NCBI GenBank assembly: GCA_000004985.1
Contig: GG738887.1
Length of the DNA stretch: 64,000 bases
Reading direction: 5' to 3' (one strand)
Source of the DNA: Naegleria gruberi
Lineage: Eukaryota
The notes under the pieces are model-generated. The model made no database searches. It was not told the origin of the DNA and saw only the letters and a list, made by a program, of their open reading frames with translations. The stretch's first letter is position 1. The number at the start of each line of letters is the position of its first letter. The position numbers were made by a program, and so were the translations under genes. Positions 1 to 30,364 of this stretch are shown piece after piece.

Positions 1-54
1 TTCCTTGTTGTTTCTTCTTGCAAGAAGTTTTGTTGAAATGATTATGAAGTACTT

Positions 55-11317: not shown

Positions 11318-11445
11318 ATTGGAAACTTGTCGAGTGTTACATAATTGAAATAATTTAACATTTTACAAAAATCTTCCATTCCAGTTCTGTATTGTTCTGG
11401 ATGAGCACATGGTGGTGAACCTTGATTTTGGTGACCTCTAATTGA

Positions 11446-12579: not shown

Positions 12580-12624
12580 ACAATAATTATTGGAAAACAG
12601 TGCAAAACGTGTATTGCTCTTACA

Positions 12625-14898
12625 CTAGATATTCAAAATTTGTCTGATAGATTGCTTGTTAGTCGAGTAATAAACAATCTTGCCACTTTCTCTAAACTTG
12701 GAAACAACATTTGGCTCCTCGCTAAATTCGTTTTGATAAAGACTGAGAACTCTTAAATGAGACAAGTGCGAGAAACAGCTTTCAAATGAAGGAATTTCAC
12801 AAAGCTCATTATGACTCAGATCCAACATTTCTAAATTCCTCAACAAGGTAGAAAAGAGCGTGCAGTTTGCATTTGTAATCTTCTCAATCTTGTTATGTCC
12901 GAGTCTCAAATCGACAATCTTGTTCGGTATCAATTCACTATTCCTATCATCCACTGTAGGTAATTGTTTTAAATTATTAAATGAAAGATTTAAAATTCTC
13001 AATTGTGGTAATGTTAGCAATTCCAACGGTATAGTTTCCAAAAGATTGTGACTCAAGTCTAACTCAACCAATGATTCAACTTGATAATTGAACAGAGATG
13101 AAAGGCATGATATTTGATTCCATTGAAGTTCTAACATGAGCAATTTAGAAAGACGTTGTGAAAATTTCATCTCTGTACTCTTTTTGTAATTCTCAATTTC
13201 TTCTGGCTCAGTGAGAGATGGATCAATGAATAAAAACTTGGGTGGAAATTCCTTGAGCTTTAAATAGTTGAGACTAATCATGGCAGAGTGATGATTTTCA
13301 TCATAGTTAAAAATCTGCCTTTGTACATAAGATTCAAAGTTTGGTCCTTTAAAATCCTTGCCAATATCTTCGTAGAGTTGAATTTGTAAAAGAAATCCAG
13401 TATTTGGAGCAATACAACATCTCTTATCTCTAACGTAGACAAAAGCCTCTTCAGCACTCATTTTCATTCGATTCATGACATAGGCAATAATAATGGTTGC
13501 AGATCGAGACATTCCTGCAGAGCAATGCACAAGAACCTTGTTGGAAGGATCAGCATTGAGACATTCATCGATCCAATCTAAGGCCTCATCAAATCGTCCC
13601 ATAATATTGGTCTTTTCTTCATCTGTCTCTGATATTTGTTTGTAATTTTTGAATAGACGAGATCTTTCCTCCTCGTCTGGGAAGGGAGAAATAACATTCA
13701 CACACAAAATACTATTAATACCAATTGATTTCAACTCTTCAATATTTGTAGCAGCAGTAACGGATCCCAAATAGAGTCTATCTGCAATCCTTTGTGGCAC
13801 TCGTTGCATGTGACATAAAAATCTCATTGCATTATGTGAATTGTGAGAGCCCTTCTTGGTTAGCACTTTAGAGAAGGATAGTCTGGCTTTTGGTGAATTT
13901 TTCTTGATTGACATTTTGATTGGAGAGGAAAAGTCCTCGTTGTGGTGAGTTTGAGACTTTTCTCTTCCAGTAATATATTTCAATTCTATAGGAATAGCAT
14001 CAGCTAAATCTATGTAATTCTCCTGTACATTCAAAGTTAAAAGACTATGTTGAATAAATAGGTTGGAAAAGTATTTTGGAATCCTTTTGATATTATTATT
14101 GGAAAGATTCAAAACTTTGAGAGGACATAAAGAAGCAACCTTGAAAAACTCTTCAGAAATCTCCTCAATAGCATTCGAGCTCAAATTAATGGACGTTAAT
14201 TGTTTAAATTGTGAGAGAAATTCAATAGGAATCCTCTTGAGTCCACAATTTGTTAATTCCACCACTGTAATATTCTCTTTCAAATAATTTGCCAATTTCC
14301 TCTTCTCGTCAAACATAACTTCTACCAAATTGACTCTCAAATATTCGTCCATATCACTCACACCATCATGCAATAAATTATTAAATTCCAAACCTTCAAA
14401 CGGAGCCACAACCTGTTCATTCTCAATCAATTCATTTACATTATTTACAATTGAAACTCTATCAGAATTTTCATTAAACTTCAGGATTAAATTTTCCAAA
14501 GCCTCCGATCTAATAGTATTCTCCACAACACTCATCGAACACTTTCTAAAGAAGAGAATCTTTCCATGCTGTTCTCCACTCTCGACTGATGCAGCAGCGG
14601 TTGAAGAAGTTGATGAAGCAATCCTCTTGGAAATATCCGTAGTATTGTCATTTGTAGAATGAATAGCTTGTTCTATAGTAGAAAAGAATTTACTAAGAGT
14701 TTCACCTATTGAAGAAGTAGAAGGAGATGAAGAATTTGTTATTGTTGTATTACTGGATTTTCTTCTGGGAGAATTTTCAGAGTTTGAATTTGTTGTTGTT
14801 GTTGTTTTTGTTGTTGTTGGTGATGAGAACCATCTCCGACCACCGGAAAAGAACGCCAAGACCGGAAGAAGCGTGAGCCACCAGAGAGCGGCAAGCAT
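12625..14898 (-). CDS. Dual-specificity protein phosphatase with leucine-rich repeats (dictyostelid MPL-type MAP-kinase-phosphatase architecture)
   Basis: ATG at 14896-14898 is confirmed (aaaaaaATGctt on the minus strand), and the 757-aa single exon ends at TAG 12625-12627. It starts with a hydrophobic N-terminus LAALWWLTLLPVLAFF followed by a Thr/Ser-rich region. LRRs are present, including LTSINLSSNAIEEI, LKVLNLSNNNIKRIP, LRILNLSFNNLKQLP and LEMLDLSHNELCEIP. The central DUSP catalytic core has the P-loop VHCSAGMSRSATIIIAYVM (HCxxGxxRS) and an upstream DRLYLGS motif. Confidence 0.8.
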   Translation of the reverse strand: MLAALWWLTLLPVLAFFSGGRRWFSSPTTTKTTTTTNSNSENSPRRKSSNTTITNSSSPSTSSIGETLSKFFSTIEQAIHSTNDNTTDISKRIASSTSSTAAASVESGEQHGKILFFRKCSMSVVENTIRSEALENLILKFNENSDRVSIVNNVNELIENEQVVAPFEGLEFNNLLHDGVSDMDEYLRVNLVEVMFDEKRKLANYLKENITVVELTNCGLKRIPIEFLSQFKQLTSINLSSNAIEEISEEFFKVASLCPLKVLNLSNNNIKRIPKYFSNLFIQHSLLTLNVQENYIDLADAIPIELKYITGREKSQTHHNEDFSSPIKMSIKKNSPKARLSFSKVLTKKGSHNSHNAMRFLCHMQRVPQRIADRLYLGSVTAATNIEELKSIGINSILCVNVISPFPDEEERSRLFKNYKQISETDEEKTNIMGRFDEALDWIDECLNADPSNKVLVHCSAGMSRSATIIIAYVMNRMKMSAEEAFVYVRDKRCCIAPNTGFLLQIQLYEDIGKDFKGPNFESYVQRQIFNYDENHHSAMISLNYLKLKEFPPKFLFIDPSLTEPEEIENYKKSTEMKFSQRLSKLLMLELQWNQISCLSSLFNYQVESLVELDLSHNLLETIPLELLTLPQLRILNLSFNNLKQLPTVDDRNSELIPNKIVDLRLGHNKIEKITNANCTLFSTLLRNLEMLDLSHNELCEIPSFESCFSHLSHLRVLSLYQNEFSEEPNVVSKFRESGKIVYYSTNKQSIRQILNI
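14791..14819. repeat. Imperfect (TTG)n repeat encoding a poly-Thr tract near the N-terminus of the LRR-phosphatase (minus strand)
   Basis: The repeat tgttgttgttgttgtttttgttgttgttg on the plus strand corresponds to ACA/AAC codons on the coding strand (TKTTTTTNSNS). Confidence 0.85.
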
Positions 14899-15103
14899 TT
14901 TTTTAATTTAAGAAAATTGGATATTAATATTTTAATATTTTTAATATTTTGTAAAGTTGTTTTGAAATACAAGGGCGAAATTCTGAAAATAGCAGATTAG
15001 GAAATAGTTATGAAACAGGCTGCTGAAACATGAATTTCCCATCCAACTAATGCATTCTGTTGCATTGCATTAAGGAAGAGTTTATGATTTAATAACCTTG
15101 ATA

Positions 15104-16783
15104 TTAGTGCATGAGCAGAATGGCTGAATATTCGTGTTCACACCTTTCAAGAAATAATCTTTCTGAATAAATAGTAAAGAATCCATCAGATATAGAGGCT
15201 GCTCTTTGAATCTCTGGATCTGTTCTCAATTTCATAGAGAGTATGTTGATATTATTTCCTGTCTTCTTGACAAACTCCATGGCAAGCTCTTTATCTATCT
15301 CACCATAGTAATTATTTAAACCACCCCTTATAGCTGCAATCAATACATCTCGATCAGATGGAAATAAGTTACGCAACATTGAATAGTCAGAGCCCTTACG
15401 AATTAGTCCCTCAATTGCTAGCTCTTTATCCAATTGACCTGGATACAAAGCACGTAGATCTGATAAAGACAAGCCACTTCTTACAGCCTCTAAAGCAAAA
15501 TTTCTATTGGATAGTAATAGTGCTGGTGGCTCAGCATCTGGTGGACTTTCCAAAAAGTTGGGCATGTCTTTTGGAACAAACAATGCAACAGAACCATTTT
15601 GCTTGACAGCTGCCATAATAATTTCACTGTCTCTCGTTAAACGTGGAGAAACAAACTGATAGCAACATCCGTTCTGTTTGACAAGTTCCAAAACCACCTC
15701 TCTATCATCTTGCAATATTTTCATCAAGTGTAAATGCAGTGGATTGTCTCTGACAGCTGTCAATGCCAAATTTTTATCATTTAACAGATCTGGATGAGCA
15801 TAAGCATACATTTTTGCCTTAACCAAAATATCTACATCTGTTTTCAATCTGTAAGATGCATAATGATATGCTTGATTGTCATTCTCCAAGGCCAACAATA
15901 CAATTTCCTTGTTATCTTTAATTTCTTTCGAAGCATAATTGAGAGAAGTTCCTTTTCTAGTAATTGCCCTTGTTACCACTCTCAAATCCCCCTTCAGTTC
16001 TTGGCTTGCAAACTCGAGTGCATCTGGATTCTGATTAATTGCCAAGTTGACAATTTTCTTATTATTTTTCAATTCAACAGATGCATATTGCAAACCTTTT
16101 CCATAAACCTTTACAATTTCTGTAAGTACATCAGGATTCGATCCATAATTCTTTAAAATTTGATCCAAATACCTTGTATCTGTCCATTCCTTCACACTAA
16201 ACTCTCCTCTATTAAACAAATCCAAAACAAATGCAATATCCTCCTCTCCATACTTATTGTGCATAATTCCACTCAATTTTCCCTTTTCATTTGCAATATC
16301 ATTCAAATACTTTTCAAATCCCTCAACACTTCTCAATTGTCCATAATCTTTCAAACTGGGATTATAAATCTTCCTCATAATTGCTCTCATCACCAAAGCA
16401 TCTCTCAAAACCTCTCGAGGTAATATCTGAATAATTGTCTCTATCGATAACTTGACCAAATTCCTCATATAATCAATTACACAATCTCTGTGCTTCATAA
16501 ACTCAATCGGAATAAAATCATTATTTGTTTTAAATTCCTTCTTACGATCCAATCGGAGATGAATTCGTTGAAACCACTTGACTCTTCCTTTCTGTTGATT
16601 TTCAAATTTTGATTTTAATTTTAAATATAAATGATGAAGATGATCATGATGATGATTATTAATATTGGAATGATGATCGGAGAGAATTAGAATGACAGCA
16701 TCACGATGATGATAAGAAGCAGGAGGAGCAGTTGCTTTTGTACCTTTTCTAATTGTTGTTTTTTTGCTTTTGTTTGTAAGCAT
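15104..16783 (-). CDS. DUF4116-repeat protein
   Basis: ATG is at 16781-16783 and the 559-aa ORF ends at TGA 15104-15106. The N-terminus is His/Asn-rich low complexity. It is followed by tandem ~35-aa repeats of the DUF4116 type: LQYASVELKNNKKIVNLAINQNPDAL, EFASQELKGDLRVVTRAI, LNYASKEIKDNKEIVLLALENDNQAYHYASYRLKTDVDIL, LELVKQNGCCYQFVSPRLTRDSEIIMAAVKQNGSVALFV. Confidence 0.6.
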   Translation of the reverse strand: MLTNKSKKTTIRKGTKATAPPASYHHRDAVILILSDHHSNINNHHHDHLHHLYLKLKSKFENQQKGRVKWFQRIHLRLDRKKEFKTNNDFIPIEFMKHRDCVIDYMRNLVKLSIETIIQILPREVLRDALVMRAIMRKIYNPSLKDYGQLRSVEGFEKYLNDIANEKGKLSGIMHNKYGEEDIAFVLDLFNRGEFSVKEWTDTRYLDQILKNYGSNPDVLTEIVKVYGKGLQYASVELKNNKKIVNLAINQNPDALEFASQELKGDLRVVTRAITRKGTSLNYASKEIKDNKEIVLLALENDNQAYHYASYRLKTDVDILVKAKMYAYAHPDLLNDKNLALTAVRDNPLHLHLMKILQDDREVVLELVKQNGCCYQFVSPRLTRDSEIIMAAVKQNGSVALFVPKDMPNFLESPPDAEPPALLLSNRNFALEAVRSGLSLSDLRALYPGQLDKELAIEGLIRKGSDYSMLRNLFPSDRDVLIAAIRGGLNNYYGEIDKELAMEFVKKTGNNINILSMKLRTDPEIQRAASISDGFFTIYSERLFLERCEHEYSAILLMH

Positions 16784-17025
16784 TAGTAATTAGTAAAAGA
16801 AAATTTGATTAAAGTATTGGCGGGAAAGTTAATGTAAAGATATTTTTTTTGTGAATGGTAAATATCCCGCTAAACACTTACTGTCAAAGCGTGCTGGTAC
16901 TTTGACGATTTTGCGTCAAGCTATTTTCGTCAAACAAGCGAAAAGTTGTCTTAGCAGGAGGGAACTTGGAAATTTTTCCAATTTCAAATAACAAATAAAT
17001 TTCCAAGTCAATAAATTTCAATTTA

Positions 17026-17721
17026 TTAAAAGTTTTGATATGCATAATAATGCACAGGAATATATTTCTCTTCATCAGGGAGTTTGACAACAACACATGG
17101 GAGCATTTCAAATGCTTCACTTCTACTAATCTCCCTTGTCTTATTGGTGGTGTTGGAAATTAAGGTAATCTCATTAAAATCTTTTGAGAAAGATGCCACT
17201 TTGAAAACTTCGTTCGTTTTGATATCCTTGATACAATCTAATTCCTTTCTTACAACGTAGTGACCAACTATACATTCAGAGGCAATAAGAGGTTCATTTA
17301 AATCCATTAAATCACATAATTGGCACATATCAAAGTACATGATTGAATATCGAGCAGAATTTGAACAAACGTAAGTCTTTGAGAGTGTGAAATTGAGTCC
17401 TTCTCCAATAAAAGCAGAATTTACACCAAGAGGGCCGTACATTCTACAAGAATTGACTAACTCAGTACAAATATGAAAGTTTGGTGTTGCTTTCTTTTCT
17501 CCAACCACTTTCTGATAATCAATTAACACTTGAAACAATTCAACCTCAATGTCTCCTAATTTGGATAACTGAAATGAGTCTGTCAGCTTATCAATTATAG
17601 AGGCAAATCTATGAATTATTTCAACCTTTGATTCTATTTCCTTAAATCCTTCGATATGTGTAAACAGCTCTAAATAATGATGACAGATCATGTAAATTTC
17701 AATTGCCTTTAGACTGTTCAT
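17026..17721 (-). CDS. Hypothetical protein (231-aa ORF), unknown family; possibly the 3-prime part of a disrupted longer gene
   Basis: This is a long open frame with ATG at 17719-17721 and a stop at 17026-17028. Its upstream minus-strand frame shows that an adjacent ORF in another frame (17744..17992) overlaps it by ~35 nt. That pattern suggests a frameshift or an unrecognised short intron rather than two genes. I recognise no family motifs. Confidence 0.4.
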   Translation of the reverse strand: MNSLKAIEIYMICHHYLELFTHIEGFKEIESKVEIIHRFASIIDKLTDSFQLSKLGDIEVELFQVLIDYQKVVGEKKATPNFHICTELVNSCRMYGPLGVNSAFIGEGLNFTLSKTYVCSNSARYSIMYFDMCQLCDLMDLNEPLIASECIVGHYVVRKELDCIKDIKTNEVFKVASFSKDFNEITLISNTTNKTREISRSEAFEMLPCVVVKLPDEEKYIPVHYYAYQNF

Positions 17722-17743
17722 AATCTGGCCATTTGTGGTCTTT

Positions 17744-17992
17744 CTAGGATGCTTGTGAAGGAATGATGGATACTTTTATTTCAGAAACAATGTCAAATCT
17801 TTCCCAGTATTGAACTGGGATCATTTTCATCATTTCTTGGAAAACTCCTTCATATAATACATGCATTGAATCATAGCAACAAATATCTGATGGTGATGGA
17901 TTCCAATCTTGATCCAAAATTGGTGAAATTGATTTCAACCCTTGATCAAAATTCCCTTTTTGAATGTGATTTTTCCAATACTCTTTATCTCT
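17744..17992 (-). pseudogene. Open frame fragment without ATG start, possibly a frameshifted 5-prime part of the downstream ORF or a decayed element
   Basis: The track's start at 17938 is TTG. The frame is open upstream to a stop at 17993-17995 and the only ATG is internal (..CCYDSMHVLYEGV..). It ends at TAG 17744-17746 while the next ORF's frame is already open in a different phase. Confidence 0.25.
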
Positions 17993-18023
17993 AAAGGTGC
18001 AAGATTAATTGTATCATATTTAG

Positions 18024-18650
18024 GGTGTATTCTTATTGGGTATCGAGTTTGTTTCAAAGATTTTGAATTTTCTTTGGTTGATTCTATATCAACACTTTAC
18101 AGATTCTGAACCACTTGTTCAGTTTTCAAGTCAGAAATCTACAAGCAAGCCAAAGTCTTCTACCAAGAATGCTTCTTCTTACAATGAACCTTCCAACAAG
18201 AAGGCTTCTTCAAGCAATGATGATTCAAATGAAGTTCCGGAATCATTTGCAAATTCTGCATTTTTGAAACACTATAATGATTTAGTTGATGAGAATGAAA
18301 GAATTAAGAAAGAATTGGCTAGATATAAACAGGCAGTCAGAAATATGAATGAAATGATTAATCAAATGGTGAGCTGTTTAGATGAGTATCAAGATGTCTT
18401 TGCATTGGGAGACTCTATTGTGCATCATGATGATAAAACCATTGTGCTCACCCATAAAGAGATAGCAAAGATTTGTGAATTAGGTGAGAAAACCTCTCAA
18501 ATCATACATGTTTGCTCAACCTACTTTGAAAAGTCAATTACAAAGCACAACCAAGATGAAAGAAAGCTATTGTTTAAGATAATATTTGATGCAATGGGTT
18601 GGAAAATAAGCAAACACAAGAACAAACTCAGTAAATACAGAGGTCTTTAG
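18024..18650 (+). CDS. Hypothetical Ser-rich / coiled-coil protein fragment lacking an in-window ATG start
   Basis: The track's start at 18036 is TTG. The frame opens at 18024 after TAG 18021-18023, and the first ATG is about 100 codons downstream. The coding-like composition includes a Ser/Lys/Asn-rich N-part and a heptad-like ENERIKKELARYKQAVRNMNEMINQM segment. After the stop TAG 18648-18650, the +1 frame continues as a Lys/Glu-rich open frame to 18849. This suggests a frameshift, sequencing error or missed intron. Confidence 0.35.
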   Translation, partial: GVFLLGIEFVSKILNFLWLILYQHFTDSEPLVQFSSQKSTSKPKSSTKNASSYNEPSNKKASSSNDDSNEVPESFANSAFLKHYNDLVDENERIKKELARYKQAVRNMNEMINQMVSCLDEYQDVFALGDSIVHHDDKTIVLTHKEIAKICELGEKTSQIIHVCSTYFEKSITKHNQDERKLLFKIIFDAMGWKISKHKNKLSKYRGL

Positions 18651-19440
18651 TTCAATTGCAAGCAACCTTAAGAAAAAGAAGGGTGCAAAACAAAATGAAT
18701 CAGTAAAGAAGAAGAAGACAGAACTTGAGGAGACCACCTCAAAAAAGAGAAAAGAAAGAGAGGAAAACAATGATTCTGGATCATCCTCTTGTGAGGAAGA
18801 AACCATTGAAGAGGATTCCACTGATGATATGAGTGATGATGAATGTTGATTGTAAAATGTTGGGTTACTAAATCGTTATTTTTAATAAAAAAATGTCTAC
18901 ACATCAACTCCCTCATCATATCATACAAAACTGTCGGTTAGTACTACAACATTATTTTTACTACAATTTAAAATCATCAGTTTTATTGTTTATTGGTTTG
19001 TTGTATTTAAATTTCTTAATTTCTTAATTTTTTAATTATTGTTGTTAGTTGGATTTATAAAGATTTTATTCTTCGAAATTGGTTTGTTGTATTATTTTCA
19101 TATTATATGATTTTACCTGCTACGGATCATCAAAATTATTCATCACAAGAAATTAGGTAATTTGTTATAATTCAATTTGTGCTAAACAGCACGATTTATA
19201 TGCAAGCAACAATGTAAGTAATTTTGATTTATTATCATTAATTTTGAATGTAACTGAAGAGGTGAGTGATATTTCATCAGTTGGAGTGAGGATGAGGAGT
19301 GTAGATATTTTTTTCGGTTGGAAATTTGGAATGGAAGTGGATCTAATAATAGATGAGTTTGGAACTTGGAAATTTTACAAGATTTTGTAGTAAATAATTG
19401 CTGGAATTTAGTCAATAATTGACAATAATTATTATGAATT

Positions 19441-19700
19441 TTTTGACGTAATTATTGATGTTTTTTCATCAATATTTGATACAAAACATTATTGATTTAT
19501 TATCAATTTTTGACGTCAAAAATTGATAATAAATCATTAAGAATTGACGATAATTCTTGACGTCAATTGCGCGTTAATTTGGAATTTTTCTCCCAACACT
19601 TGTTGACGATTTTATTATGCTTTAAGCATCAATTTTTAACATTTTTCAATAAACTTTATTTCATAATTTTGCAATCTGATACGTTAAAATTTGACGAAAA
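19441..19700. promoter_or_regulatory. Intergenic cluster of TGACG(T) half-sites and CRE palindromes upstream of the 19809 gene
   Basis: Within 260 bp there are TGACGTAA at 19444-19451 and TGACGTCA at 19511-19518. TGACGA at 19545-19550 and TGACGTCA at 19558-19565 together form the dyad aattgacg...cgtcaatt. Further TGACGA sites lie at 19604-19609 and 19692-19697. A regulatory role is inferred; only the motif occurrence is observed. Confidence 0.35.
19496..19533. repeat. Perfect 38-bp palindrome centred on CRE-type TGACGTCA
   Basis: The sequence tttattatcaatttttgacgtcaaaaattgataataaa (19496..19533) equals its own reverse complement, verified base by base. The core TGACGTCA lies at 19511-19518. 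Flanks extend the dyad imperfectly to about 19494..19535. Confidence 0.9.
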
Positions 19701-19808
19701 AATTGTTAAAATTATCATCAAAATAATTTAGCGGGTATTTATTGTAATGCGTTTGAAAAATGATCAAATGTATCACGTTTCCAATATTGTTCAACTTTCC
19801 AATAAAAA

Positions 19809-20369
19809 ATGGACGAATCAACACCTCTCTATAATTTCGGAAATTCTGTGGAAAAAGATGAACGTTCGGAAGATGATGATATTGTCATTCAATTCGTTCA
19901 ATTAATTTCATGTTTATTACTTTCATGTTTTACATTATTTGATTTAGTTTTGGGGATTTGGGGAAGTGTAATTTTTGGAATCTATTCGAAAGGGTCCAAT
20001 CTGATAGATCCAGAGCCATGTAATATGACAACTGCCACTGCTTTAATAATGACATGCTCTGTGTGTTATTTCTCATTCTTTATTTTCAAGATTAGTTTAG
20101 TTTGTTGTCATTGTTTCGGATGTAGAAAGAAAAGGATTTATCTTGTACCAAGCATTTGTTTCTTCTACATTCCTTGTTTAATAATTAATGGAATTTCGTG
20201 TACGATCTTGGCATTCATTGGTGGAAATAGAAAATGTCAAGAAATTCATGTTCAGGAATTCGCATTTTCCATAACAAGCGTAATTCTAATGTCTCTAATT
20301 ATATGTATATGGACTTGTCAAAATTGTTTATTGGGTGGATGTAAATTAGTTGCCGCTAACGAGGATTAA
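19809..20369 (+). CDS. Small Cys-rich four-helix membrane protein (hypothetical)
   Basis: ATG at 19809 follows aaaaaa, and the 186-aa ORF ends at TAA 20367-20369. An acidic N-terminus is followed by four hydrophobic helices (LISCLLLSCFTLFDLVLGIWGSVIFGI, ALIMTCSVCYFSFFIFKISLVCC, LVPSICFFYIPCLIINGISCTILAFIGG, ITSVILMSLIICIWT). There are many Cys residues, including a CCHCFGC cluster in the loop. Confidence 0.5.
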   Translation: MDESTPLYNFGNSVEKDERSEDDDIVIQFVQLISCLLLSCFTLFDLVLGIWGSVIFGIYSKGSNLIDPEPCNMTTATALIMTCSVCYFSFFIFKISLVCCHCFGCRKKRIYLVPSICFFYIPCLIINGISCTILAFIGGNRKCQEIHVQEFAFSITSVILMSLIICIWTCQNCLLGGCKLVAANED

Positions 20370-20875
20370 TTATGTTTGTAAAACTTTACAATAAAATCAT
20401 CAAAATAAAATTTCATTACTTGATTATCTTTATCCCCCAACCTGAAATACTTCTTTTAAATAGATCATTCAGAAAATCCACCAAAGATGAAATCCCAATA
20501 AGATTCAACACATCTTTAACTAAGAAAACAACTGAGGAATTATTAACAATCCCAAACTTTTTATTAAAATCATGAATCAGTTTCATTGCAATCCAAAAAA
20601 TTTTACAAACATATAATTGTTATTGAACCACTTCAACTTCTAACATTTGGGAAAACCAGTCCACGTTCCTAGATCAATTATGAAATGAATAGTGTCGAAT
20701 GTGGGGCATGGCACTTTGTTGTCAATGCTCAAATATTTCAGAAGTCGATTGTTGGAACAGATGAAAATTGCTTTTCATAATTGTAAAATATTTACTCTCA
20801 AATAAAGATGTTTCGTAGTGACGGATTCGAAGAATTGAATAAAAAGATCAATTTGTTGTGTGAAAATTTATAAAT

Positions 20876-21853
20876 TTACTCGGCACCAATTAACAAATCA
20901 GAGAGCTTGTACTCAATGACAAACTTTTGATTACTCTTCAATGAATCAATCAAGGCCAAGACTGGATTACGGCTCTTCAAAGTTTCAGCATTAGCTTGAG
21001 ACACTTCACCAGTATTTTCCAAATCAGTAGCAGCTTGCTTCTTGGCATTAACCTTAATGAGATATCTGAAACCTAACTTGGTACAGAAAATAGAAGAGAA
21101 GAAGAAGAGAGACATTAAAATACCATAACCATGAACCATTGTACCAATTAAACAGACAAGATTGAGTGCCAAATTGAGAGCCATCATGATTGGAGACTTT
21201 AAGAGCATTGAAATAGTTTCCAAAACTACCAAAATCCAGAAAATAACATGAACAAAAACTGGGAATCTCCATCCATTAGTATCAGCAGCAACCCAAATGA
21301 CACCAATAATTTGTAAGAGAAGTGTCAAGGCCAACAAGTTACACAATGACCCAATCAATGCAGTTGGAGAACGAACACGAGTCTTGAGTTTGTTCAACAT
21401 TTGTCTAAAGGTCGATGTTGGACGCATTCTCATAGTCGAATCTTCTGTAGAAGCTTGAGCCATACCACCATTTCCATCAATAGTAGTTGTTGTGGTTGTA
21501 ATTGTAGTGGTATATGGGAGTTGTTGTTGAATTTGAATTGGTTCGGTAGTTATTGTTGTAGGATAAGGAGTTGCTTGTTGTTGACCAATGAATTGAACTG
21601 GAGGAATTGGTTGATTATTCATTCCGTATGGCATATATGAAGCACCTTGTAAAGTTGGATACATGTGTTGTTGGTGTGGGAGAACCGGTAATTGAACCAT
21701 TGGATTACTTGAAGGCAAAGAAGATGCTTGCAAGACTGGATAAGGAGTTGTCGTTGCTTGTATTGTAGGATTGGATGAAGGAATTGTTGTTGGTAAATTT
21801 GTATTCATCATTTGTTGTGCGTATGGATGTGGTGGAGGTGAAGTAAGAGTCAT
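20876..21853 (-). CDS. Membrane protein, paralog A of a divergent pair (Pro/Gln/Thr-rich N-terminus, 4 predicted TM helices, conserved C-terminal SDLLIGAE)
   Basis: ATG at 21851-21853 is confirmed and the 325-aa ORF ends at TAA 20876-20878. It shares clear collinear similarity with the 22370..23197 protein: AQAS-EDS, LKTRVRSP-x-L-x-SLCN-L-L, H-x-FWIL-V and the identical C-terminal octapeptide SDLLIGAE. Confidence 0.65.
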   Translation of the reverse strand: MTLTSPPPHPYAQQMMNTNLPTTIPSSNPTIQATTTPYPVLQASSLPSSNPMVQLPVLPHQQHMYPTLQGASYMPYGMNNQPIPPVQFIGQQQATPYPTTITTEPIQIQQQLPYTTTITTTTTTIDGNGGMAQASTEDSTMRMRPTSTFRQMLNKLKTRVRSPTALIGSLCNLLALTLLLQIIGVIWVAADTNGWRFPVFVHVIFWILVVLETISMLLKSPIMMALNLALNLVCLIGTMVHGYGILMSLFFFSSIFCTKLGFRYLIKVNAKKQAATDLENTGEVSQANAETLKSRNPVLALIDSLKSNQKFVIEYKLSDLLIGAE

Positions 21854-22369
21854 CTTTAGTTAGTATAAATCTTCAAGGAATTATATTTTCTTATTATTAT
21901 TATTATTTTGATTATTATTTGTACAAAAGTCGCGACGATATTAGATGTCGGTTGGTTTTATGATAATTTTTTTAGTGATTTTGTTTGATGTGAGATGAAC
22001 AAGAATTTGAATGGAAGCATCAATTTTCGAATTCCTTTCCAATTTGATTTTTGACTTCTTTTAAGGAGGTTGTTAACGTTGAGGAGTTGTTGAAACAAGC
22101 TGTTGATTATCAGCGATATTCGATATCGACTAGATTTTGAATCATGTATTCATCCTTAATATCTACTTCGATAATCGAAAATAATTCCTTTCTAATTCTC
22201 TCGCGATCTTGTTCAACTAGGCTTCTACTTCCAACAGACATCAAATTTTTAAACCTTAAAAAAAATCGCAAAATTCTGCCAAGCTCGTAAATTTGCAGCC
22301 AATTTCAAACTCTAACCGCCTGTACCATCATCACAATCATTTTCATTATTTAAATAATTCGCGATCACA

Positions 22370-23197
22370 ATGAATAATAATAATGCTACAAATAATAACC
22401 ATGTTCATCCGTACATGATGGCACAACAACAACAACAACAATTTACAAAATCACCTGATGCTCCTCCAATTCAATATCATTCCGGTCTTGCTCAACAACA
22501 ACAACAACCAGTTTTTACCACCTCAAGTCCATATCCAACCTCTACCACCACCACTACCTATACAACTACTATTGAATCAGTGCCACAACAATATCCTACA
22601 AACATGGATAATGTTGCTCAAGCATCTATGGAAGATTCTTCTTTAAAGCTTGTTGGAACTTCTATTGCAAAGCAAATGTGGACTAAATTGAAGAGTAGAG
22701 TACGTTCTCCATACACTCTTGTCTCTTCATTGTGTAACATGTTGTCATTGGCCATGCTTTTTGAATTTATCTTTATCATTGTTGCTTCCTGTCAATATTA
22801 TAACGCCACACCAGCTCATATGCACATTGTCTTTTGGATTTTGTTCGTGGTTCAACCAATTTTCATGATTTTGAAATCACCTTTATTGATGGTTGTTTCC
22901 TTGTTTATGAATTTGGCCATGTTTGTTATGAGTTGTGTTCAAACTGCTGCCTATGGCAAGAATACTGGTATTTCATATGGTGTTTTGGTTGTCATGTTCT
23001 TGTACTCGTGTTTCTTTTCAGTTATTTTGGCTATCAGTTATCTCAAGAAGGTCAACAAGTCAACAGAACAACAAGCAACTCAATCACCAAAAGCTGCTAT
23101 CATGGCTGACATTGTTACCATTACTCAAAATATTAAGCGTTATAGAGAAATGATCAAGGCTTGTAAAATTTCTGATCTCTTAATTGGTGCTGAATAA
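22370..23197 (+). CDS. Membrane protein, paralog B of the divergent pair
   Basis: ATG at 22370 and a 275-aa ORF ending at TAA 23195-23197. The N-terminus has poly-Asn and poly-Gln from (CAA)n. The conserved blocks shared with the 20876..21853 protein are LKSRVRSPYTLVSSLCNMLSL, HIVFWILFV and the terminal SDLLIGAE. The last 8 codons of the two genes differ at 3 synonymous positions (ttg/ctc, gcc/gct), which indicates purifying selection on both copies. Confidence 0.65.
   Translation: MNNNNATNNNHVHPYMMAQQQQQQFTKSPDAPPIQYHSGLAQQQQQPVFTTSSPYPTSTTTTTYTTTIESVPQQYPTNMDNVAQASMEDSSLKLVGTSIAKQMWTKLKSRVRSPYTLVSSLCNMLSLAMLFEFIFIIVASCQYYNATPAHMHIVFWILFVVQPIFMILKSPLLMVVSLFMNLAMFVMSCVQTAAYGKNTGISYGVLVVMFLYSCFFSVILAISYLKKVNKSTEQQATQSPKAAIMADIVTITQNIKRYREMIKACKISDLLIGAE
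22424..22441 (+). repeat. (CAA)6 trinucleotide repeat encoding poly-Gln in paralog B; a second (CAA)5 lies at 22494..22508
   Basis: The repeat caacaacaacaacaacaa is read directly from the sequence; in frame it encodes QQQQQQ. Confidence 0.9.
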
Positions 23198-23433
23198 ATA
23201 ATCACTGTAAATATTAATTGTAAATAACTATAAAACTCAATCTTCAACAATATTAGTTTTAAATGAGCGCATGTTTAAGAATGAACACCAGATGTAGTTG
23301 AAGAATTTCAAAAAGACAGGGAAATAGCTGCTTTAAATAAGAATGCATAGAAACATGCATCGAGATGGTAACAAGAAATAATTACAGGTATTTTTCTAAT
23401 TTACAATAGTTTAATCTCAATATTCTCAAATAT

Positions 23434-24367
23434 TTAACAAGCTGTGCAATTCTTTCCTAATTGCTTTGCTGACAAGCTCAATAATAATGGTCTCACATAC
23501 ACGACGGAATTGGCAATAGCTGTTGGAATATATCCATTAGGAGCTGCTTGAGCTATGAAAGTAGCTCTCAAATCTCCATTGTTTAATTCGGTAAATTTCA
23601 GATAGGTGAAAATGTTGGTTCCTCTGACGTGGCCCTTTGCTGGCTTAATGTCGAGAGCTTCATCGATGGAAGTTGTCAATAGGATGGTTGTCTTTTTGGC
23701 ATCAGAAACTTCTGGTTTAACATCGAAATATCTTTCAACATAGAGAAAATCTCTTTCCGAAACCATCATGCCTTTTTTCCAATAAAATTTCCAATATTTT
23801 CCACACATGAATTATCAATAATTTTGATAAGAAATGAAATATTCCAATACAACCAATCGTTAGCAAACCATGCACAAACAATCAAAACCTACTTGGTGAA
23901 GTTACAACATAATGTCTGACACTCCAATTTCCCTCCTCAGTGCTAAACTTTCCTACTTCAGTAATTGATTTGGTATTCTCATCAAAAATTTGTCTAGTTT
24001 TCGTATCTGCAGTAGTCAACAATGGAACAATCTCATCAACAGTACATTGTGAAATAAGTGTCTCTCCACGAATGACACTTCCTTCATTGGCAGATGCTAC
24101 AGAAATTGTCACCTGATCGACGACCTTGTATGGTTTGAATAGATCAGTGCTCTTTTCATAATGTTGGGCAACTGAGAGAGCTTTGGAGTAGAGAGTGGAG
24201 GAAATGACCTTGTTGATGGATTCGATGGAGAACATTTTTTTTAAAGTTTTGAATAGTTGATTTGGAGAATTTAATAGGGAAATTGAGAGAGGAGTCGGAT
24301 AGTCGGCCGGTGCAGTTTGCTCAGTCCTATCCGATCTCAAATTATTGATTAGGGATTCTCTTTGCAT
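23434..24367 (-). CDS. START (StAR-related lipid-transfer / Bet v1-like) domain protein, two exons
   Basis: The CDS is join(24367..23884, 23771..23434) on the minus strand. ATG at 24365-24367 is confirmed. The donor GTAGGT starts right after base 23884 and the acceptor AG lies at 23773-23772, giving a 112-nt intron. The spliced product is about 273 aa and reads ..WSVRHYVVTSPS|MMVSERDFLYVERYF.. then ..KGHVRGTNIFTYLKFTELNNGDLRATFIAQAAPNGYIPTAIANS... This contains the conserved START R-D-F and K-G-x-V-R segments. The exact splice sites are inferred. Confidence 0.55.
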
Positions 24368-24652
24368 TTAAGTGTGCTGATTACAGCAACTGTTATTGTA
24401 AACTTGACTAAGTTAGTGATGAGAAAGTTGAAAACTGTAGATGCCTATCCATGATACTCCATCCTTTTCCTTATGAAAAAACCGTTCAATTGGACTATTA
24501 ATGATTAAATATATTTAATAATTTATATTCCAAATTCTTTCGTGAAGAAATTTCTTTTGAAAATACTGTAAAACTACCAAATTTATTTATTGGCGCCACT
24601 TTTTCCCGCCTCTCACTTACTATTATTTTAATATAAATAATAAAAAAAACGA

Positions 24653-27508
24653 ATGAACAGCAAATTCTCGACTCGGCCAATTTCATCGAGAAAATCTTCG
24701 GCACTGTCGAATAGTCGCTCGGCCAGTGCTGCTGATGAGGATGATGACGATGAAGAACATCAACGTTTATTTAAGAATTTTTCAAGAGGAGACGATAGTG
24801 ATGAGGATTTTTCTGCTACTAGTGGAGGAGGAATGGATTACATTAGGAATAGAATTTATTTTGAAACACCAACGCCAAAAGGCTCTGGACGATCATCGAC
24901 AATTCCCTTACCTGTCGGTGATTCTAGTATTAATATCGAAGTATTTAATCATGAAAATGATGAATATGATGACGATGATGATGAGCCTCTGATATTTGGA
25001 ATTGAAAAGAAGGATGATACAAAGATTGCTATTAGTATTGTACCAGGGACTCGTGATAAGGAAAAGTTTTTAAACACTAAGGAAAATAATAATTTTGATA
25101 GGAGCTTGCCAAGTGCAATTAAGAGAGAGGGTTCTTCGGCATCGTCTTATGGAAGATTTGAGACTCCGAGTCCATTTCAAACTGAGGAAGGAAATTTTGA
25201 AGAGGATTTTGGAAGTGAAAGTGGAAGAATTACAACATTTACTAATAGATCTGAGGATGCACCTTCAGTTTCAACAACAACAGGGGCTGTATTACAAAAA
25301 CCATCATTGAAAAAGTTTGAGAGCATTCCGCTTGGGCTTTCCTCTCCCTTCACTAAGAAGAATAGTGCTGGAGGTTTATTGAAAAAAAGTACTGGTTCCT
25401 CAAACGTCTCAATACAGGGAGATTTTGATGAGGAAGATACAAGTCATCTCAAAGATGATCCTCTTGCAGTGAATTTAAAACCATCTAGAACCTCCTATGT
25501 TGCAGGTTCAACAAAGAAGGGCATTAATAGTGATGCTGCCTCCACAGTAACATCTCTTGCCCCTAATTCTCTATTCTCTAGGGACCAAGCTGTCTTCAAT
25601 GATCCTAATTTTCACGACCTAACAGAGGACGAATTGATTAACAAGCAGAAAAAACTTGGTCAAAAAAAGGTAAACACTTCCAATGCAAAGATTAACCTCA
25701 ATTTATCACAAGCTCAAACGGCTGCTCTAGGAACAGAGGCTCTTTCTGAATTGAAACGAAAAATGGAAACCAAAGAGGAAGATATGGAAATAATGAATGG
25801 AATTATTGATTTTGCAAAGAAGGAAGAATCTAAACTATTGCTCAAAACTGGGAATTTCAGCACTGTTGCCAAGTATGAAAGAGAATCGAAACGACAAGAC
25901 GAAAAAAGGAATATCTCACAATTATTGACCACTGTTAAAAAGAGGCAACACAATGAGAAGCAAGTCACCAAGAAGAATGAAATCACCATCCCAATGTCTA
26001 GCAAGAAAATCAAGTGGGTAGAAGACGCTAAAAAGAAGGGAAGAGAAAATTTGAAAGAACACTTGTTTGCTGAAAAGATGGAAGATTTTGCAATTCAGGC
26101 CAGAATCAATCACGAAAAGACTGTCGAAAATTACAAGATTCATTACGACAATTTATTTGCTGAACACCAACAAGCTCTGCAACAAATCAAAATTGAAAAG
26201 GAAAATGTAACCAAACATCAGGAAGAGAACAAATCTCTCAAATATACTATCGAAATGTTGAGACAAAAATTGGGAAAGCAATCGGTGAGAGAAATTGAAA
26301 AGGAACAAAAACTGAGACTCTTCTCAAATTATGAACCTCTTTTTGAAACATTGCAGAAGAATTTCAACTTTGATTCACCGTATGATGTTATTAGGAGAAT
26401 TGAAATGTTGGAGAAGGCTCAATCTGATTCTTTCACACAACTTTTGGAAGCACAAGAACAAAAGAATGCTTTGGAACGACAATTTGAAAAGTACAAGACT
26501 GAAATAGAGAACAAACACAGAAAGGCCATTGGGGAATTGGAAAAGCAAATCGAACGTGATCAAAATCAAATCAAGGAAGATAATATGAACATGAAAAAGT
26601 TTCAACAAACTCTGGATTCCAGTGAAAATTACAGACAAAAGTTTTTAGTATTAAGTGATTCTGTGATAGATTTGTGGCACACCTGGGTGAAAGATGTGGA
26701 AAAATTGGGCTATAGAGATACAACTGTTTTTTACAAGAATGGGGAACATTCATTGACTGGTGGAGCAGCCACTTTGTTAATGCACTCTGATCCAGATTTT
26801 AGTGATTCCAATCAAGTCATGTCTGCCGTTAAGAATTTATTGATTGCCTTCACTCCCAACAAGGCAGGTCACTCTTACTCGGAGCTTGCAAAAATGGCAA
26901 ATGGATATTGGCTTAAATATTTCAAGACTGATTTTGATATCAAGAGTAAACCAAAGCAAATATTTGAAAAGATGGCTCAATCCATTGATGTAAGAAATAC
27001 TCGAATCAAGGAATTGGAAAGGAAGGTCAAGGAAATTGAAATTCTCGTAAAGCAATTGGAAGATGACAAGAATAAGGCCACCAGAGAAAAGAGGGCTCTC
27101 GAAGTTCAAGTCAACGTAGGCCAACAATTCCAAAGGCCACAATCAGCCGGGGCTCGTCTCAAAAATGTCAAATCTCCCACACTACACTACATTTACGGTG
27201 CAGAAAACAACAAGGAAAAGAAGTCCAATTCAAGACCTCAGAGTGCTCGAGTTTGGCCTAGACCTCAGAGTGGAGCAAGTAGCCCATCAAATAATACCAA
27301 TAGATTTAGACCTTCCACTGCAAAAAGTGATCATCCAACGACAACATCTGACAATTCTAGACCCTCCTCTTCATCCTCATTGAGAGCATTTGTTAAAAGA
27401 CCAATGAGTGCACCTTCTAATAAGAGACCACAATCCTCCTCAGCAAAGAGTACAACTACTCATGATGATCTTGGCTCCTTCTTTATTACACAAGTTGGTA
27501 TCACTTAA
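24653..27508 (+). CDS. Large coiled-coil protein with Ser/Asp-rich N-terminus and Ser/Pro/Arg-rich C-terminus (hypothetical)
   Basis: ATG at 24653 immediately follows an in-frame TAA, and the 951-aa uninterrupted ORF ends at TAA 27506-27508. The central ~450 aa are strongly heptad-like and K/E/Q-rich (e.g. KELERKVKEIEILVKQLEDDKNKATREKRALE). The ends are low-complexity and acidic or Ser-rich. I recognise no catalytic motifs. Confidence 0.6.
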   Translation: MNSKFSTRPISSRKSSALSNSRSASAADEDDDDEEHQRLFKNFSRGDDSDEDFSATSGGGMDYIRNRIYFETPTPKGSGRSSTIPLPVGDSSINIEVFNHENDEYDDDDDEPLIFGIEKKDDTKIAISIVPGTRDKEKFLNTKENNNFDRSLPSAIKREGSSASSYGRFETPSPFQTEEGNFEEDFGSESGRITTFTNRSEDAPSVSTTTGAVLQKPSLKKFESIPLGLSSPFTKKNSAGGLLKKSTGSSNVSIQGDFDEEDTSHLKDDPLAVNLKPSRTSYVAGSTKKGINSDAASTVTSLAPNSLFSRDQAVFNDPNFHDLTEDELINKQKKLGQKKVNTSNAKINLNLSQAQTAALGTEALSELKRKMETKEEDMEIMNGIIDFAKKEESKLLLKTGNFSTVAKYERESKRQDEKRNISQLLTTVKKRQHNEKQVTKKNEITIPMSSKKIKWVEDAKKKGRENLKEHLFAEKMEDFAIQARINHEKTVENYKIHYDNLFAEHQQALQQIKIEKENVTKHQEENKSLKYTIEMLRQKLGKQSVREIEKEQKLRLFSNYEPLFETLQKNFNFDSPYDVIRRIEMLEKAQSDSFTQLLEAQEQKNALERQFEKYKTEIENKHRKAIGELEKQIERDQNQIKEDNMNMKKFQQTLDSSENYRQKFLVLSDSVIDLWHTWVKDVEKLGYRDTTVFYKNGEHSLTGGAATLLMHSDPDFSDSNQVMSAVKNLLIAFTPNKAGHSYSELAKMANGYWLKYFKTDFDIKSKPKQIFEKMAQSIDVRNTRIKELERKVKEIEILVKQLEDDKNKATREKRALEVQVNVGQQFQRPQSAGARLKNVKSPTLHYIYGAENNKEKKSNSRPQSARVWPRPQSGASSPSNNTNRFRPSTAKSDHPTTTSDNSRPSSSSSLRAFVKRPMSAPSNKRPQSSSAKSTTTHDDLGSFFITQVGIT

Positions 27509-27791
27509 ATATTGATCTCCTCTTGGATATTACTATCAAAACTAGTGTGTACTTGCTAATTTATTTAGCTAGAGATTTCTCACCTCAGAATCATTGATTG
27601 GCTGTTGGATTCTTATCTTGTAAAGATGAGCAAAAAAGGGACCCTTAATTGGTTGTTTAAAATACCACAAAAAAATTGTCCAAATCCACCACAGTATAGA
27701 TCCTCATCACCAGTAACTCGATCCAGAACAAGCCAAAACATTGAAAAAGTTCTTGGTCTTCTTGTTTATCAAAAAGCAAAGCTAAGAAAAA

Positions 27792-28250
27792 ATGTCTCCA
27801 CATCCAAAATGTCCATGCAAAGGTAGTTGTGTGAATTGTATGAAAAAGTTTAGTGGTATTGTGAAGAATAAAATTGGAGTGAGTAAGGTGCTTAATAGCT
27901 TGAAAAAGATTGGTTGGGGAGGTGAATTCTTCTCCCGTGAACAACCATCTCCATCAATGAACTCTTCGAATTGCTCATCATCTGGAGTGGTATCACCATT
28001 GCTTAATAGAAGATCATCAGTAGCAAATCTGGCCACATGTTCGACAGGTGCTGTTGGAGAATCCTCAACAAACTCCTCTGTCACTTCCCTTATTTCATCA
28101 ACTTCATCGGATAACTTGATGGTTGTTGGTTCTTCATCTTCATCATCAACGAATTGTTCCACCTTCTCGCCTACTTGTCGTTCTGTTGCTCATCATCACC
28201 ACGAACAGAAAGCAACATCATGTACAGTTCAAGAATCATCCTCCATGTAA
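27792..28250 (+). CDS. Small Cys/Ser-rich hypothetical protein (strand assignment tentative)
   Basis: ATG at 27792 follows aaaaaa, and the 152-aa ORF ends at TAA 28248-28250. It is Ser-rich low complexity with a C-x-C-x-x-S-C-x-x-C N-terminus. An antisense ORF (27782..28162) covers the same DNA but has no ATG at all (its track start is GTG), so the plus strand is favoured. No homology support. Confidence 0.3.
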   Translation: MSPHPKCPCKGSCVNCMKKFSGIVKNKIGVSKVLNSLKKIGWGGEFFSREQPSPSMNSSNCSSSGVVSPLLNRRSSVANLATCSTGAVGESSTNSSVTSLISSTSSDNLMVVGSSSSSSTNCSTFSPTCRSVAHHHHEQKATSCTVQESSSM

Positions 28251-28607
28251 ATAGATAAGGTTGTGTAGAACTCTGAAGAATTTTGCTTAATCTTTCACAT
28301 AGTTAAAATCGAGTCGTTACAAATTAGTGTAAATAAATATAACACAAGTTGTTTTAATAGTAACGAATTATTGATTATTTGTGTAAAGTGTAACTTGTTA
28401 ATAGTCAAAGGTCTCAAACTGGTATTATTATCAGGTGTAGAAGAATTAACATAGTTTGGCAACAAGTACTGTTTATTCCTTGTTAGGATGCAGTTTCTTC
28501 AGATATTTATTTCTAATGGTTTGAAAGATGTGATATCGTGATATTTTCTAAGAGGAACAGAGGGCCTGTTAGAAACTCATCTTAATATTGTTTATTTAAA
28601 AAAAAAT

Positions 28608-28883
28608 TTATATTAAAGTCTCCCTGTTTTTGCTTGTGTACACAATCAGAACAACCAGAGCAAGAACAGCGCCATGAATTATTTGAGTGGCTGGTAGTAA
28701 TTCCAGTTGTTTCTTCATTTCTTGAACCTCAGCACTTAATTGGTTAATATAAGTATTTAACTGGTTAATATTAGTAGTTAACTGAATATTAATCATCTCT
28801 TGTCTAGCGAGAACATCTCGCAAGTGCATATAATTATACATAAAATCATCTTGGAGTTGGGAAAATTGAAGTATTGAATCCAT
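28608..28883 (-). CDS. Tail-anchored coiled-coil protein (SNARE-like topology), possibly the terminal exon of a gene that continues across the 50-N gap
   Basis: ATG at 28881-28883 is confirmed and the 91-aa ORF has its stop at 28608-28610. It has a heptad-like segment (LRDVLARQEMINIQLTTNINQLNTYINQLSAEVQEMKKQLE) followed by one C-terminal hydrophobic helix (IIHGAVLALVVLIVY) and a short tail. An upstream minus-strand open frame (29017..29185, running into the N gap) could be an earlier exon via a GTGAGC donor at 29025-29020, which I verified, and an AG acceptor I place at about 28902-28901. That upstream exon is speculative. Confidence 0.35.
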   Translation of the reverse strand: MDSILQFSQLQDDFMYNYMHLRDVLARQEMINIQLTTNINQLNTYINQLSAEVQEMKKQLELLPATQIIHGAVLALVVLIVYTSKNRETLI

Positions 28884-29185
28884 GGCCGGGTAGAACTTGC
28901 TTAATTCAATACAAATTCCAACTGTAGAGTCATTTTGTAATTTTAATTCATGAGAAAATGTAGAAAGACCAATATCTACTAGTAGTTAATTTTCTTGTTC
29001 AATTTCGAGTTCTTGCTCACAGCCTAATAATCGTTGTCTCCTCCTTAATAATTTCTTCAATCAATCTAGTAGATTCATATAACACTGCATTAACTGGAAA
29101 ACTTAGTTCAATTTCAAGCTCACGTAGTGATGGATGTTTTTCAATTATAATTATCTCCTCATTATTGAATGTGATATTTGTTTTG

Positions 29186-29235
29186 NNNNNNNNNNNNNNN
29201 NNNNNNNNNNNNNNNNNNNNNNNNNNNNNNNNNNN
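29186..29235. other. Assembly gap (50 N)
   Basis: A run of exactly 50 n characters, the conventional placeholder for a gap of unknown size between contigs. Confidence 1.
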
Positions 29236-29601
29236 ACCCATAACCGAATTTGAGGCATGTAGTGTAATTCTAACATCACGATCAGCTCATTACTCTATGA
29301 AGTTTAATCTTTGCATCAAATCTGCTAAATTAACTTTTCAAATTTTAATGAAGAGGTCAGCAAATGTTTTTAAAGTTCCCAAAATGTTTTCAATGTTCAT
29401 TTTCAAAATTTCTTATCTATTTTTAAATATAATGACGAAATTTTCATCATCATTACAAAAAGTATGATGTCAACAACTCCGAAATTCAATGATGAAGACA
29501 CACGGTTTTCATTCATATAAAACCCATTGAACGATATTCTTGAAAAAAACAAGAATTTGCAAACAAGCAATTCAACTAACAATTCTAATAACTCAAACAA
29601 A

Positions 29602-30150
29602 ATGGACTTTTTCAAAAAGATTGGTCAATTCTTCTCTGGATGGCTCAGAGGTTTATTCGAAAATAAGGAAGCCAAGATTCTATTCCTTGGTTTGGATGCA
29701 GCTGGTAAAACTTCAGCTCTATATAAGATTCAATTAGATGAAAATGTTAGCACTATTCCCACCATTGGTTTCAATGCTGAAGTGTTACAATATAAGAAGG
29801 TAACTTTCAGAGTGTTTGATATTGGTGGCCAGGATAAGATTAGAAAGTTATGGAGACACTATTATCAATCGACAAATGCTATCATTTTCATTGTCGATTC
29901 TAATGATACTGAGAGATTTAAAGAAGCTGCCGAAACCTTACGGGAAGTTATGCAGGATGATTTATTGAAAGATGCCAAGTTATTGGTGTGGGCTAATAAG
30001 CAAGATTTGCCAAGAGCTGCCAATGTTAAAGATATGGTCAATACTTTGAAATTACACGAGATTAAGCAAGAATGGTACATCCAACCATGTAGTGCCCTGT
30101 CTGGCAATGGATTATTCGAAGGTTTGGATTGGTTATCCAGTAAATTGTAA
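29602..30150 (+). CDS. ADP-ribosylation-factor-like small GTPase (Arf/Arl family; closest by memory to ARL2/ARL3)
   Basis: The track's start at 29527 is TTG. The first ATG is at 29602 (caaaATGgac), and the 182-aa ORF ends at TAA 30148-30150. The G-motifs are GLDAAGKT (G1), TIGFN (switch I), WDIGGQ-type VFDIGGQ (G3), ANKQD (G4) and CSAL (G5). Blocks DIGGQ.KIR..W..Y, IVDS.D..RF and CSALSG.GL.EG.DWL recall ARL2/ARL3. The start is MDFF.., so there is no Gly2 myristoylation site. Confidence 0.8.
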
Positions 30151-30364
30151 ATAAACACTTTGATATCTCATATTTCAAACTTGTCAAATAGGATTTCATC
30201 ATATTAGCCTCCAACCAATCTAAACACCATGACTAATTTAGAATTACTGTTAATTTCTAATTCTTGCAAAGTTTTTTCATCATCTTCCATTGACATCACT
30301 TTCGAATTGTGAATTATTCTAAATTCATTTCCAATGTTCCACTCCTCAGCCACCCTCCAACGTA

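Follow-up and report, generated by a model that had tools for sequence, protein, structure and literature searches.

The locus described here lies in a 64,000-nucleotide stretch of contig GG738887.1 (assembly GCA_000004985.1) of the amoeba Naegleria gruberi, referred to below as the window, and consists of two adjacent genes that point away from each other and encode homologous four-helix membrane proteins of an undescribed family. The analyzable sequence of the window is 1..30364, with a further gap of 50 bases at 29186..29235; the remainder, 30365..64000, is N (33,636 bases, more than half). Both open reading frames (ORFs) are intact, and their products are 100% identical to annotated N. gruberi proteins: NAEGRDRAFT_80792 (XP_002674017 / D2VPV8) for the minus-strand gene, whose product has 325 amino acids (aa), and NAEGRDRAFT_80793 (XP_002673938 / D2VPV9) for the plus-strand gene, whose product has 275. 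The pair is arranged head to head as follows:

20876..21853, minus strand: gene NAEGRDRAFT_80792, 325 aa, the conserved orthologue type (ORF and protein matches)
21854..22369, no strand: spacer of 516 bp between the two start codons, with the palindrome TCGCGA at 21930..21935, 22201..22206 and 22359..22364
22370..23197, plus strand: gene NAEGRDRAFT_80793, 275 aa, the diverged second copy, found in N. gruberi only (ORF and protein matches)

The two products are homologous far beyond chance (BLASTP: 36% identity and 57% positives over 208 aa, E = 3e-38), and the blocks AQAS-EDS, KLK-RVRSP, SLCN, H-x-x-FWIL and LKSP and a terminal SDLLIGAE are common to both. An earlier note on this DNA had described a head-to-head pair of homologous ORFs with a 516-bp spacer, each product having an N-terminus rich in Pro/Gln/Thr, four hydrophobic helices and an identical C-terminal SDLLIGAE, and this description stands: the coordinates, ORFs and BLASTP alignment agree with it, as do the residue counts (T24 P22 Q17 in aa 1-128 of the minus-strand product; T14 Q14 P9 N8 in aa 1-79 of the plus-strand product) and the hydropathy and AlphaFold2 (AF2) secondary structure. 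The conserved blocks that it quoted are present in both products, except that the second is H-x-x-FWIL, which had been given one x short; likewise the final eight codons of the pair do differ by synonymous changes only, at three sites (ttg/ctc, gcc/gct and gag/gaa) rather than the two listed, gag/gaa having been omitted. An assembly artefact in the form of a false inverted duplicate is ruled out, the copies being just 36% identical as protein; neither N. gruberi protein was found when looked up exactly in the assembly index, so that the locus has no independent assembly on record.

Family range and membrane domain

The earlier note had implied a dictyostelid host; the organism is N. gruberi (Heterolobosea), and a search of dictyostelid genomes would therefore yield nothing. 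A conserved-core profile run exhaustively with HMMER over 1.84 billion representative proteins returned four representatives, and an indexed profile search of 5.8 billion clusters returned six clusters in all: the two N. gruberi proteins, C9374_009493 of N. lovaniensis, FDP41_012681 of N. fowleri, ABK040_015670 of Willaertia magna, and one environmental sequence. Over 98% of the length of NAEGRDRAFT_80792, its identity to the counterparts in N. lovaniensis and N. fowleri is 49-50%; for NAEGRDRAFT_80793, no closer relative was found in any database searched, and metagenome scans with the family profile and with the 275-aa protein itself returned no relatives. Pfam gave no above-threshold match in any of the six members and, at E <= 10 for both proteins and the six cores, just sub-threshold noise from hydrophobic segments (Reticulon, DUF4233, DUF2070, DUF7198); nothing matched in NCBIfam, and a profile search of PDB sequences gave nothing below E 0.25. 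The earlier statement that the pair falls into no named domain family is borne out by these searches. The family is real, undescribed and, as far as the searched databases reach, limited to the vahlkampfiid amoebae Naegleria and Willaertia (its sister genus).

Each product is a compact tetraspan protein, consisting of a disordered N-tail, an acidic patch, a basic amphipathic helix (KLKxRVRSP), four packed transmembrane (TM) helices and a C-tail. In the 325-aa protein, and then in the 275-aa protein, these parts are placed as follows (tail locations are predicted):

21470..21853, minus strand: disordered, predicted cytosolic N-tail, aa 1-128, rich in T/P/Q (composition)
21821..21829, 21731..21742, 21650..21661 and 21590..21604, minus strand: N-tail motifs HPY, YPVL, YPTL and PPVQF, respectively (motif scan)
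21365..21469, minus strand: juxtamembrane block GGMAQASTEDS...KLKTRVRSP, in which an acidic patch precedes a basic amphipathic helix (flank with five K/R)
21059..21364, minus strand: compact four-helix TM domain, aa 164-265, helices 2 and 3 being joined by an invariant LKSP turn (hydropathy, AF2 helices, invariant columns)
20879..21058, minus strand: predicted cytosolic C-tail with an amphipathic helix and the terminal SDLLIGAE at 20879..20902 (conservation in six members)
22370..22606, plus strand: shorter disordered N-tail, aa 1-79, with HPY at 22406..22414 and PPIQY at 22463..22477 and without YPxL (composition, motif scan)
22607..22711, plus strand: juxtamembrane block DNVAQASMEDS...KLKSRVRSP (BLASTP alignment, conserved columns)
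22712..23047, plus strand: four-helix TM domain, aa 115-226 (hydropathy and AF2 model m6180ed2c36d7)
23048..23194, plus strand: predicted cytosolic C-tail with an amphipathic helix and the terminal SDLLIGAE at 23171..23194

Across all six members, 32 columns of the core are invariant. Five groups can be told apart: K-L-K-x-R-x-x-S-P in the basic juxtamembrane helix; L, S, L, N and I along one face of TM1; P-x3-H-x2-F-W-I where TM2 begins; the M-x-L-K-S-P turn between TM2 and TM3; and F-x3-L-x3-Y-x4-N on TM4 together with D-L-x-x-G-A at the end of the protein. AF2 run on the six-sequence alignment predicts a compact antiparallel four-helix bundle (predicted template-modeling score 0.55), in which the block-mean predicted local distance difference test (pLDDT) of the TM region is 77-91 over most of its length and 73 at its lowest, the tails being of low confidence; this model was used for the bundle only, and a run on a four-sequence alignment (pLDDT 46) was not used. 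The predicted helices of the 275-aa protein span about aa 114-142, 149-168, 171-195 and 204-235. Foldseek against the PDB gave no match below E 0.72: the bundle resembles generic four-helix bundles only, and soluble and designed bundles score equally.

Lysine and arginine (K/R) are distributed unevenly around the helices: TM1 is preceded by 4-7 and TM4 followed by 3-4, the LKSP turn has one K, and the TM1-TM2 loop has 0-1. Because of this distribution, both tails are predicted by the positive-inside rule, with good support, to be cytosolic, and the five K/R in the 21365..21469 flank are consistent with a cytosolic location. The loops are short (about 7-10 residues between TM1 and TM2, and 2-12 between TM3 and TM4). 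Claudin, PMP22, TARP and LHFPL proteins have as their hallmark an extracellular beta-sheet in the first loop and the signature W-GLW-C-C, for which the TM1-TM2 loop here is too short and which is absent; tetraspanins have a large second extracellular loop with a CCG motif, unlike the TM3-TM4 loop here. Among the closest known proteins in overall plan are SCAMPs, synaptophysins, synaptogyrins and MARVEL-domain proteins, which also have four TM helices and both termini in the cytosol, as predicted here. However, a MARVEL or SCAMP profile match at E <= 10 is found in 0/6 members, the likeness of the bundle to those proteins appears no greater than to soluble four-helix bundles, and KLKxRVRSP, H-x-x-FWI, LKSP and the terminal DLLIGAE of the Naegleria family have no counterpart in them.

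Age of the duplication and the intergenic spacer

The duplication is evidently old as well as inverted, since the proportion of synonymous differences (pS) between the paralogues, 0.62 and so near saturation, equals that between the N. gruberi and N. fowleri orthologues (0.64). In the family comparison the 275-aa copy has 38% identity to its neighbor (the 36% given above is the BLASTP figure over 208 aa) and 41-43% to the orthologues from N. fowleri and the environment. In the phylogenetic tree, a group made up of the 325-aa copy and the N. fowleri and N. lovaniensis proteins has 90% bootstrap support, and the 275-aa copy falls outside this group, at an exact position that is weakly supported (36%); the 275-aa copy and the W. 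magna protein both have a short N-tail and a shortened C-linker. Most likely, the duplication predates the split between N. gruberi and N. fowleri, and the lineage of N. fowleri and N. lovaniensis has most likely since lost the second copy, unless it is present there without annotation. A recent duplication of little importance, the alternative allowed for in the earlier note, finds no support in the near-saturated synonymous sites or in a 275-aa copy that is no closer to its neighbor than to the other orthologues. The conserved divergent arrangement that the earlier note proposed to look for in related genomes is also absent, as there is a single copy each in N. lovaniensis, N. fowleri, W. 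magna and the contig of environmental origin; by the criterion set in that note, this speaks against a two-subunit arrangement kept across species. Comparison of the window with the orthologous loci by tblastx and tblastn matched the gene itself only: no neighboring gene was common to them, and the flanks examined contained no remnant of another copy. The orthologues of N. lovaniensis and N. fowleri (L001 5724..10506 and L002 1125..4728) have the same surroundings, a divergent ankyrin-repeat gene upstream and an EF-hand gene downstream, a microsynteny that is missing in N. gruberi, where neither neighbor is present.

Between the N. lovaniensis and N. fowleri orthologues, the ratio of nonsynonymous to synonymous substitution rates (dN/dS) is 0.17 for the core and 0.24 for the N-tail, with dS about 0.5; by the latter ratio, the N-tail, disordered as it is, is under constraint. 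Where the five other members are invariant, the 275-aa copy agrees with them in 32/45 columns (71%), compared with an overall identity of about 40%, and it too is constrained, because its 828-nt frame is open and these invariant positions are kept; this is at odds with both possibilities raised in the earlier note, a two-gene module maintained across species and a recent duplicate of little weight. The earlier claim that both copies are under purifying selection thus agrees with the dN/dS of 0.17 and the 32/45 columns kept, although the eight identical end residues from which it had been drawn are thin evidence.

Regulatory DNA in the 516-bp spacer is probably common to both genes. These 30 kb contain four divergent gene pairs whose spacers measure 276-516 bp, and because of this the shared-promoter geometry is not special, plausible as a bidirectional promoter at this position may be. 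To our knowledge, Naegleria promoters are largely uncharacterized. The 30.4 kb of real sequence contain three copies of the palindrome TCGCGA (0.51 expected for the whole window), all of them lying in the spacer and making up 3/5 of the CGCG tetramers of the window; the cluster is a testable candidate promoter element. In vertebrates, the palindromic CGCG element TCTCGCGAGA drives bidirectional transcription from TATA-less promoters (PMC6192621). The likeness is one of analogy only: the spacer also has a palindromic motif with a CGCG core between divergent genes, its second site reading TCTCGCGATC, but the organism is unrelated, the sites are only three and they are absent upstream of the orthologues of other species. 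The upstream regions of the six genes contain no 8-mer common to four or more of them.

The upstream 520 bases of the W. magna orthologue have a G+C content of just 10% (L003 7097..8000). Within the window, GGCCGA (on either strand) is exclusive to one short span, at 24303, 24673 and 24719, around the divergent spacer of a START-like gene and a 951-aa ORF (24653..27508), and GGTCTA is likewise exclusive to one short span, 27259..27363.

Tail motifs and possible function

Conserved short motifs are found in both tails. The C-tail is 40-55 residues long, with a moderately amphipathic helix, and has DL[LF][IV]GA in all six members; it ends in DL[LF][IV]GA[ED], at the C-terminus or one residue from it, the environmental member terminating one residue earlier. 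In the N-tail, [HN]PY near the N-terminus and PP[VI]x[FY] are each present in 6/6 members, and a poly-Thr run precedes the acidic patch. YPxL is found twice each in the N. gruberi 325-aa protein, N. lovaniensis and N. fowleri, once in the environmental member and not at all in the 275-aa copy, and W. magna carries YPQQL, which fits YPx(n)L; two YPxL per N-tail are reached by 0.02-0.3% of composition-preserving shuffles (0.3% for the N. gruberi 325-aa N-tail). There is good support for regarding the short motifs of the tails as functional. In addition, the C-tails of N. lovaniensis and N. fowleri contain an NPF tripeptide, which N. gruberi is without.

YPx(n)L is the ligand consensus of ALIX/Bro1, YxxPhi is a signal read by the mu subunits of adaptor complexes, and DLL/DLF are the clathrin-binding repeats of AP180. 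We tentatively propose, as a possibility that we hold well short of confidence, that each protein is a tetraspan protein of the trafficking type, with tails that recruit sorting machinery from the cytosol, and that the 275-aa copy was subfunctionalized after loss of YPxL. Such a protein would reside in vesicles or endomembranes in the manner of SCAMPs, physins and gyrins; its helix bundle would be a membrane anchor or oligomerization module, and the short linear motifs in the tails would carry the function by recruiting the sorting machinery. The two YPxL of the 325-aa type fit both the ALIX/Bro1 consensus and YxxPhi, and the terminal DL[LF] resembles the AP180 repeats. Like the ALIX/Bro1 ligands PacC/Rim101 and PAR1, the 325-aa type has its conserved YPxL motifs in a predicted disordered cytosolic tail; unlike them, its short motif doubles as YxxPhi, the 275-aa copy has none, and no PPxY or P[ST]AP accompanies it. 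Nor does the family match the Nedd4 adaptors of the NDFIP/Bsd2 type, whose hallmark is PPxY or LPxY in the cytosolic tail: these are found in 0/6 members, and PP[VI]x[FY] is one residue longer than PPxY. Within the pair, the 325-aa copy has the full motif set of the orthologues, while the 275-aa copy has lost YPxL and kept the bundle and the C-terminal motif, a split that fits subfunctionalization (for example, with the 275-aa protein as a regulatory or partner subunit that shares the C-terminal but not the N-terminal interaction). A far more specific version, which we consider improbable, would have a tetraspan adaptor invented by vahlkampfiids, in which tandem YPxL recruit ESCRT (the endosomal sorting complexes required for transport) through Bro1/ALIX and the terminal DL[LF] recruits clathrin; the 325-aa and 275-aa proteins would form a heteromer with the ESCRT-recruiting tail on one subunit, and TCGCGA would drive both genes bidirectionally.

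Several observations weigh against these proposals. The trafficking function is read from architecture and motifs only, and the motifs are degenerate: YPxL is also a plain YxxPhi, [HN]PY and PP[VI]x[FY] fit no described binding class, and DLL at the end of a hydrophobic helix could just pack on the bundle or on a partner. A regular-expression scan found PPxY, LPxY, P[ST]AP, [DE]xxxL[LI] and the clathrin box to be absent from the tails. The other species and the environmental contig have one copy each, the adjacent pair being present solely in N. gruberi, and a two-subunit design is therefore not a property of the family. As to the spacer, a similarly exclusive hexamer is found in about 2% of 516-bp spans of the window, and TCGCGA was not found upstream of the orthologues in other species. 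Finally, the full text of the literature and the supplements of three Naegleria omics papers contain no mention of the locus tag or accession of any member, and we found no experiment or expression dataset that mentions one.

Other readings of the same proteins have to be considered. A small oligomeric channel or pore, in which four-helix protomers (in N. gruberi possibly 325/275 hetero-oligomers) surround a polar pathway in the manner of MS4A/CD20, LCI1 or TTYH and the tails are only regulatory, seems to us unlikely. The MS4A proteins, which are a metazoan family, do appear in Foldseek (for example, the Fc-epsilon-RI beta chain, at E 0.8-1.6), but these matches are not significant and come with neither a CD20 Pfam match nor any other sequence link, and soluble and designed four-helix bundles are returned at equal scores, with nothing below E 0.72; no CD20, connexin or other channel profile matches any of the six members at E <= 10. 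Moreover, the invariant positions are mostly hydrophobic or lie in the cytosolic turn and flanks, and a large share of the conserved signal is held by the cytosolic tails. Still less credible, and largely refuted, is a reticulon-like shaper whose four segments, as two wedge hairpins, would curve membranes of the endoplasmic reticulum or of vesicles. It draws on a weak match of the plus-strand product to Pfam Reticulon (PF02453; E 0.016 and 15.5 bits for the full protein, E 0.0074 for the core), yet 15.5 bits is half of the gathering threshold of 31.8, and the match occurs in 1/6 members. In reticulons, a hydrophilic loop of about 60 residues lies between the two hairpins; here, the connection from helix 2 to helix 3 is the four-residue LKSP turn, and AF2 predicts full-length antiparallel helices in one bundle.

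Doubtful, too, is the view that the 275-aa copy is an unimportant, decaying, lineage-specific duplicate and that the pairing is biologically meaningless. The second copy and the head-to-head layout are indeed seen in N. gruberi alone, the copy has lost YPxL and part of the C-tail, and divergent neighbors with short spacers are the norm in this segment. Nonetheless its 828-nt ORF is still open in a genome of 34% GC despite a pS of 0.62, the terminal motif is complete, 32/45 invariant positions are retained, and the copy is not closest to its neighbor, which points to an origin before the N. gruberi/N. fowleri split and to long retention.

As it stands, this is an orphan membrane-protein family among many in a protist genome, where such families are common, and its fold is generic. 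If the motif reading is true, that is, if the tails recruit sorting machinery, it would be a membrane adaptor specific to this lineage and at work in the endomembrane system of Naegleria, whose species include a lethal pathogen, N. fowleri. The orthologue of that species, FDP41_012681, with no relative outside Naegleria and Willaertia in the databases searched, would be a genus-restricted membrane protein, and the N. gruberi pair, with one copy that has YPxL and one that has not, would be a natural experiment on subfunctionalization.

Neighboring genes

The genes adjacent to the pair are ordinary, unrelated eukaryotic ones, encoding a leucine-rich repeat dual-specificity phosphatase, a DUF4116 repeat protein, a START-domain protein and an Arf GTPase, and an Rfam scan of the window gave no match. 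Directly downstream of the minus-strand gene, at 19809..20369 (plus strand), there is a Cys-rich ORF of 186 aa with several hydrophobic segments and no Pfam match; by BLASTP it is unrelated to the paralogue pair. On the other side, the ORFs 23434..23808 and 23882..24367 (both on the minus strand) are 73 bases apart, the downstream ORF having a weak START-domain match (E 4e-4), and the two are probably a single gene with a short intron. The 951-aa ORF at 24653..27508 (plus strand), which has no Pfam match, lies in a stretch of unusually high AT skew (0.09-0.18).

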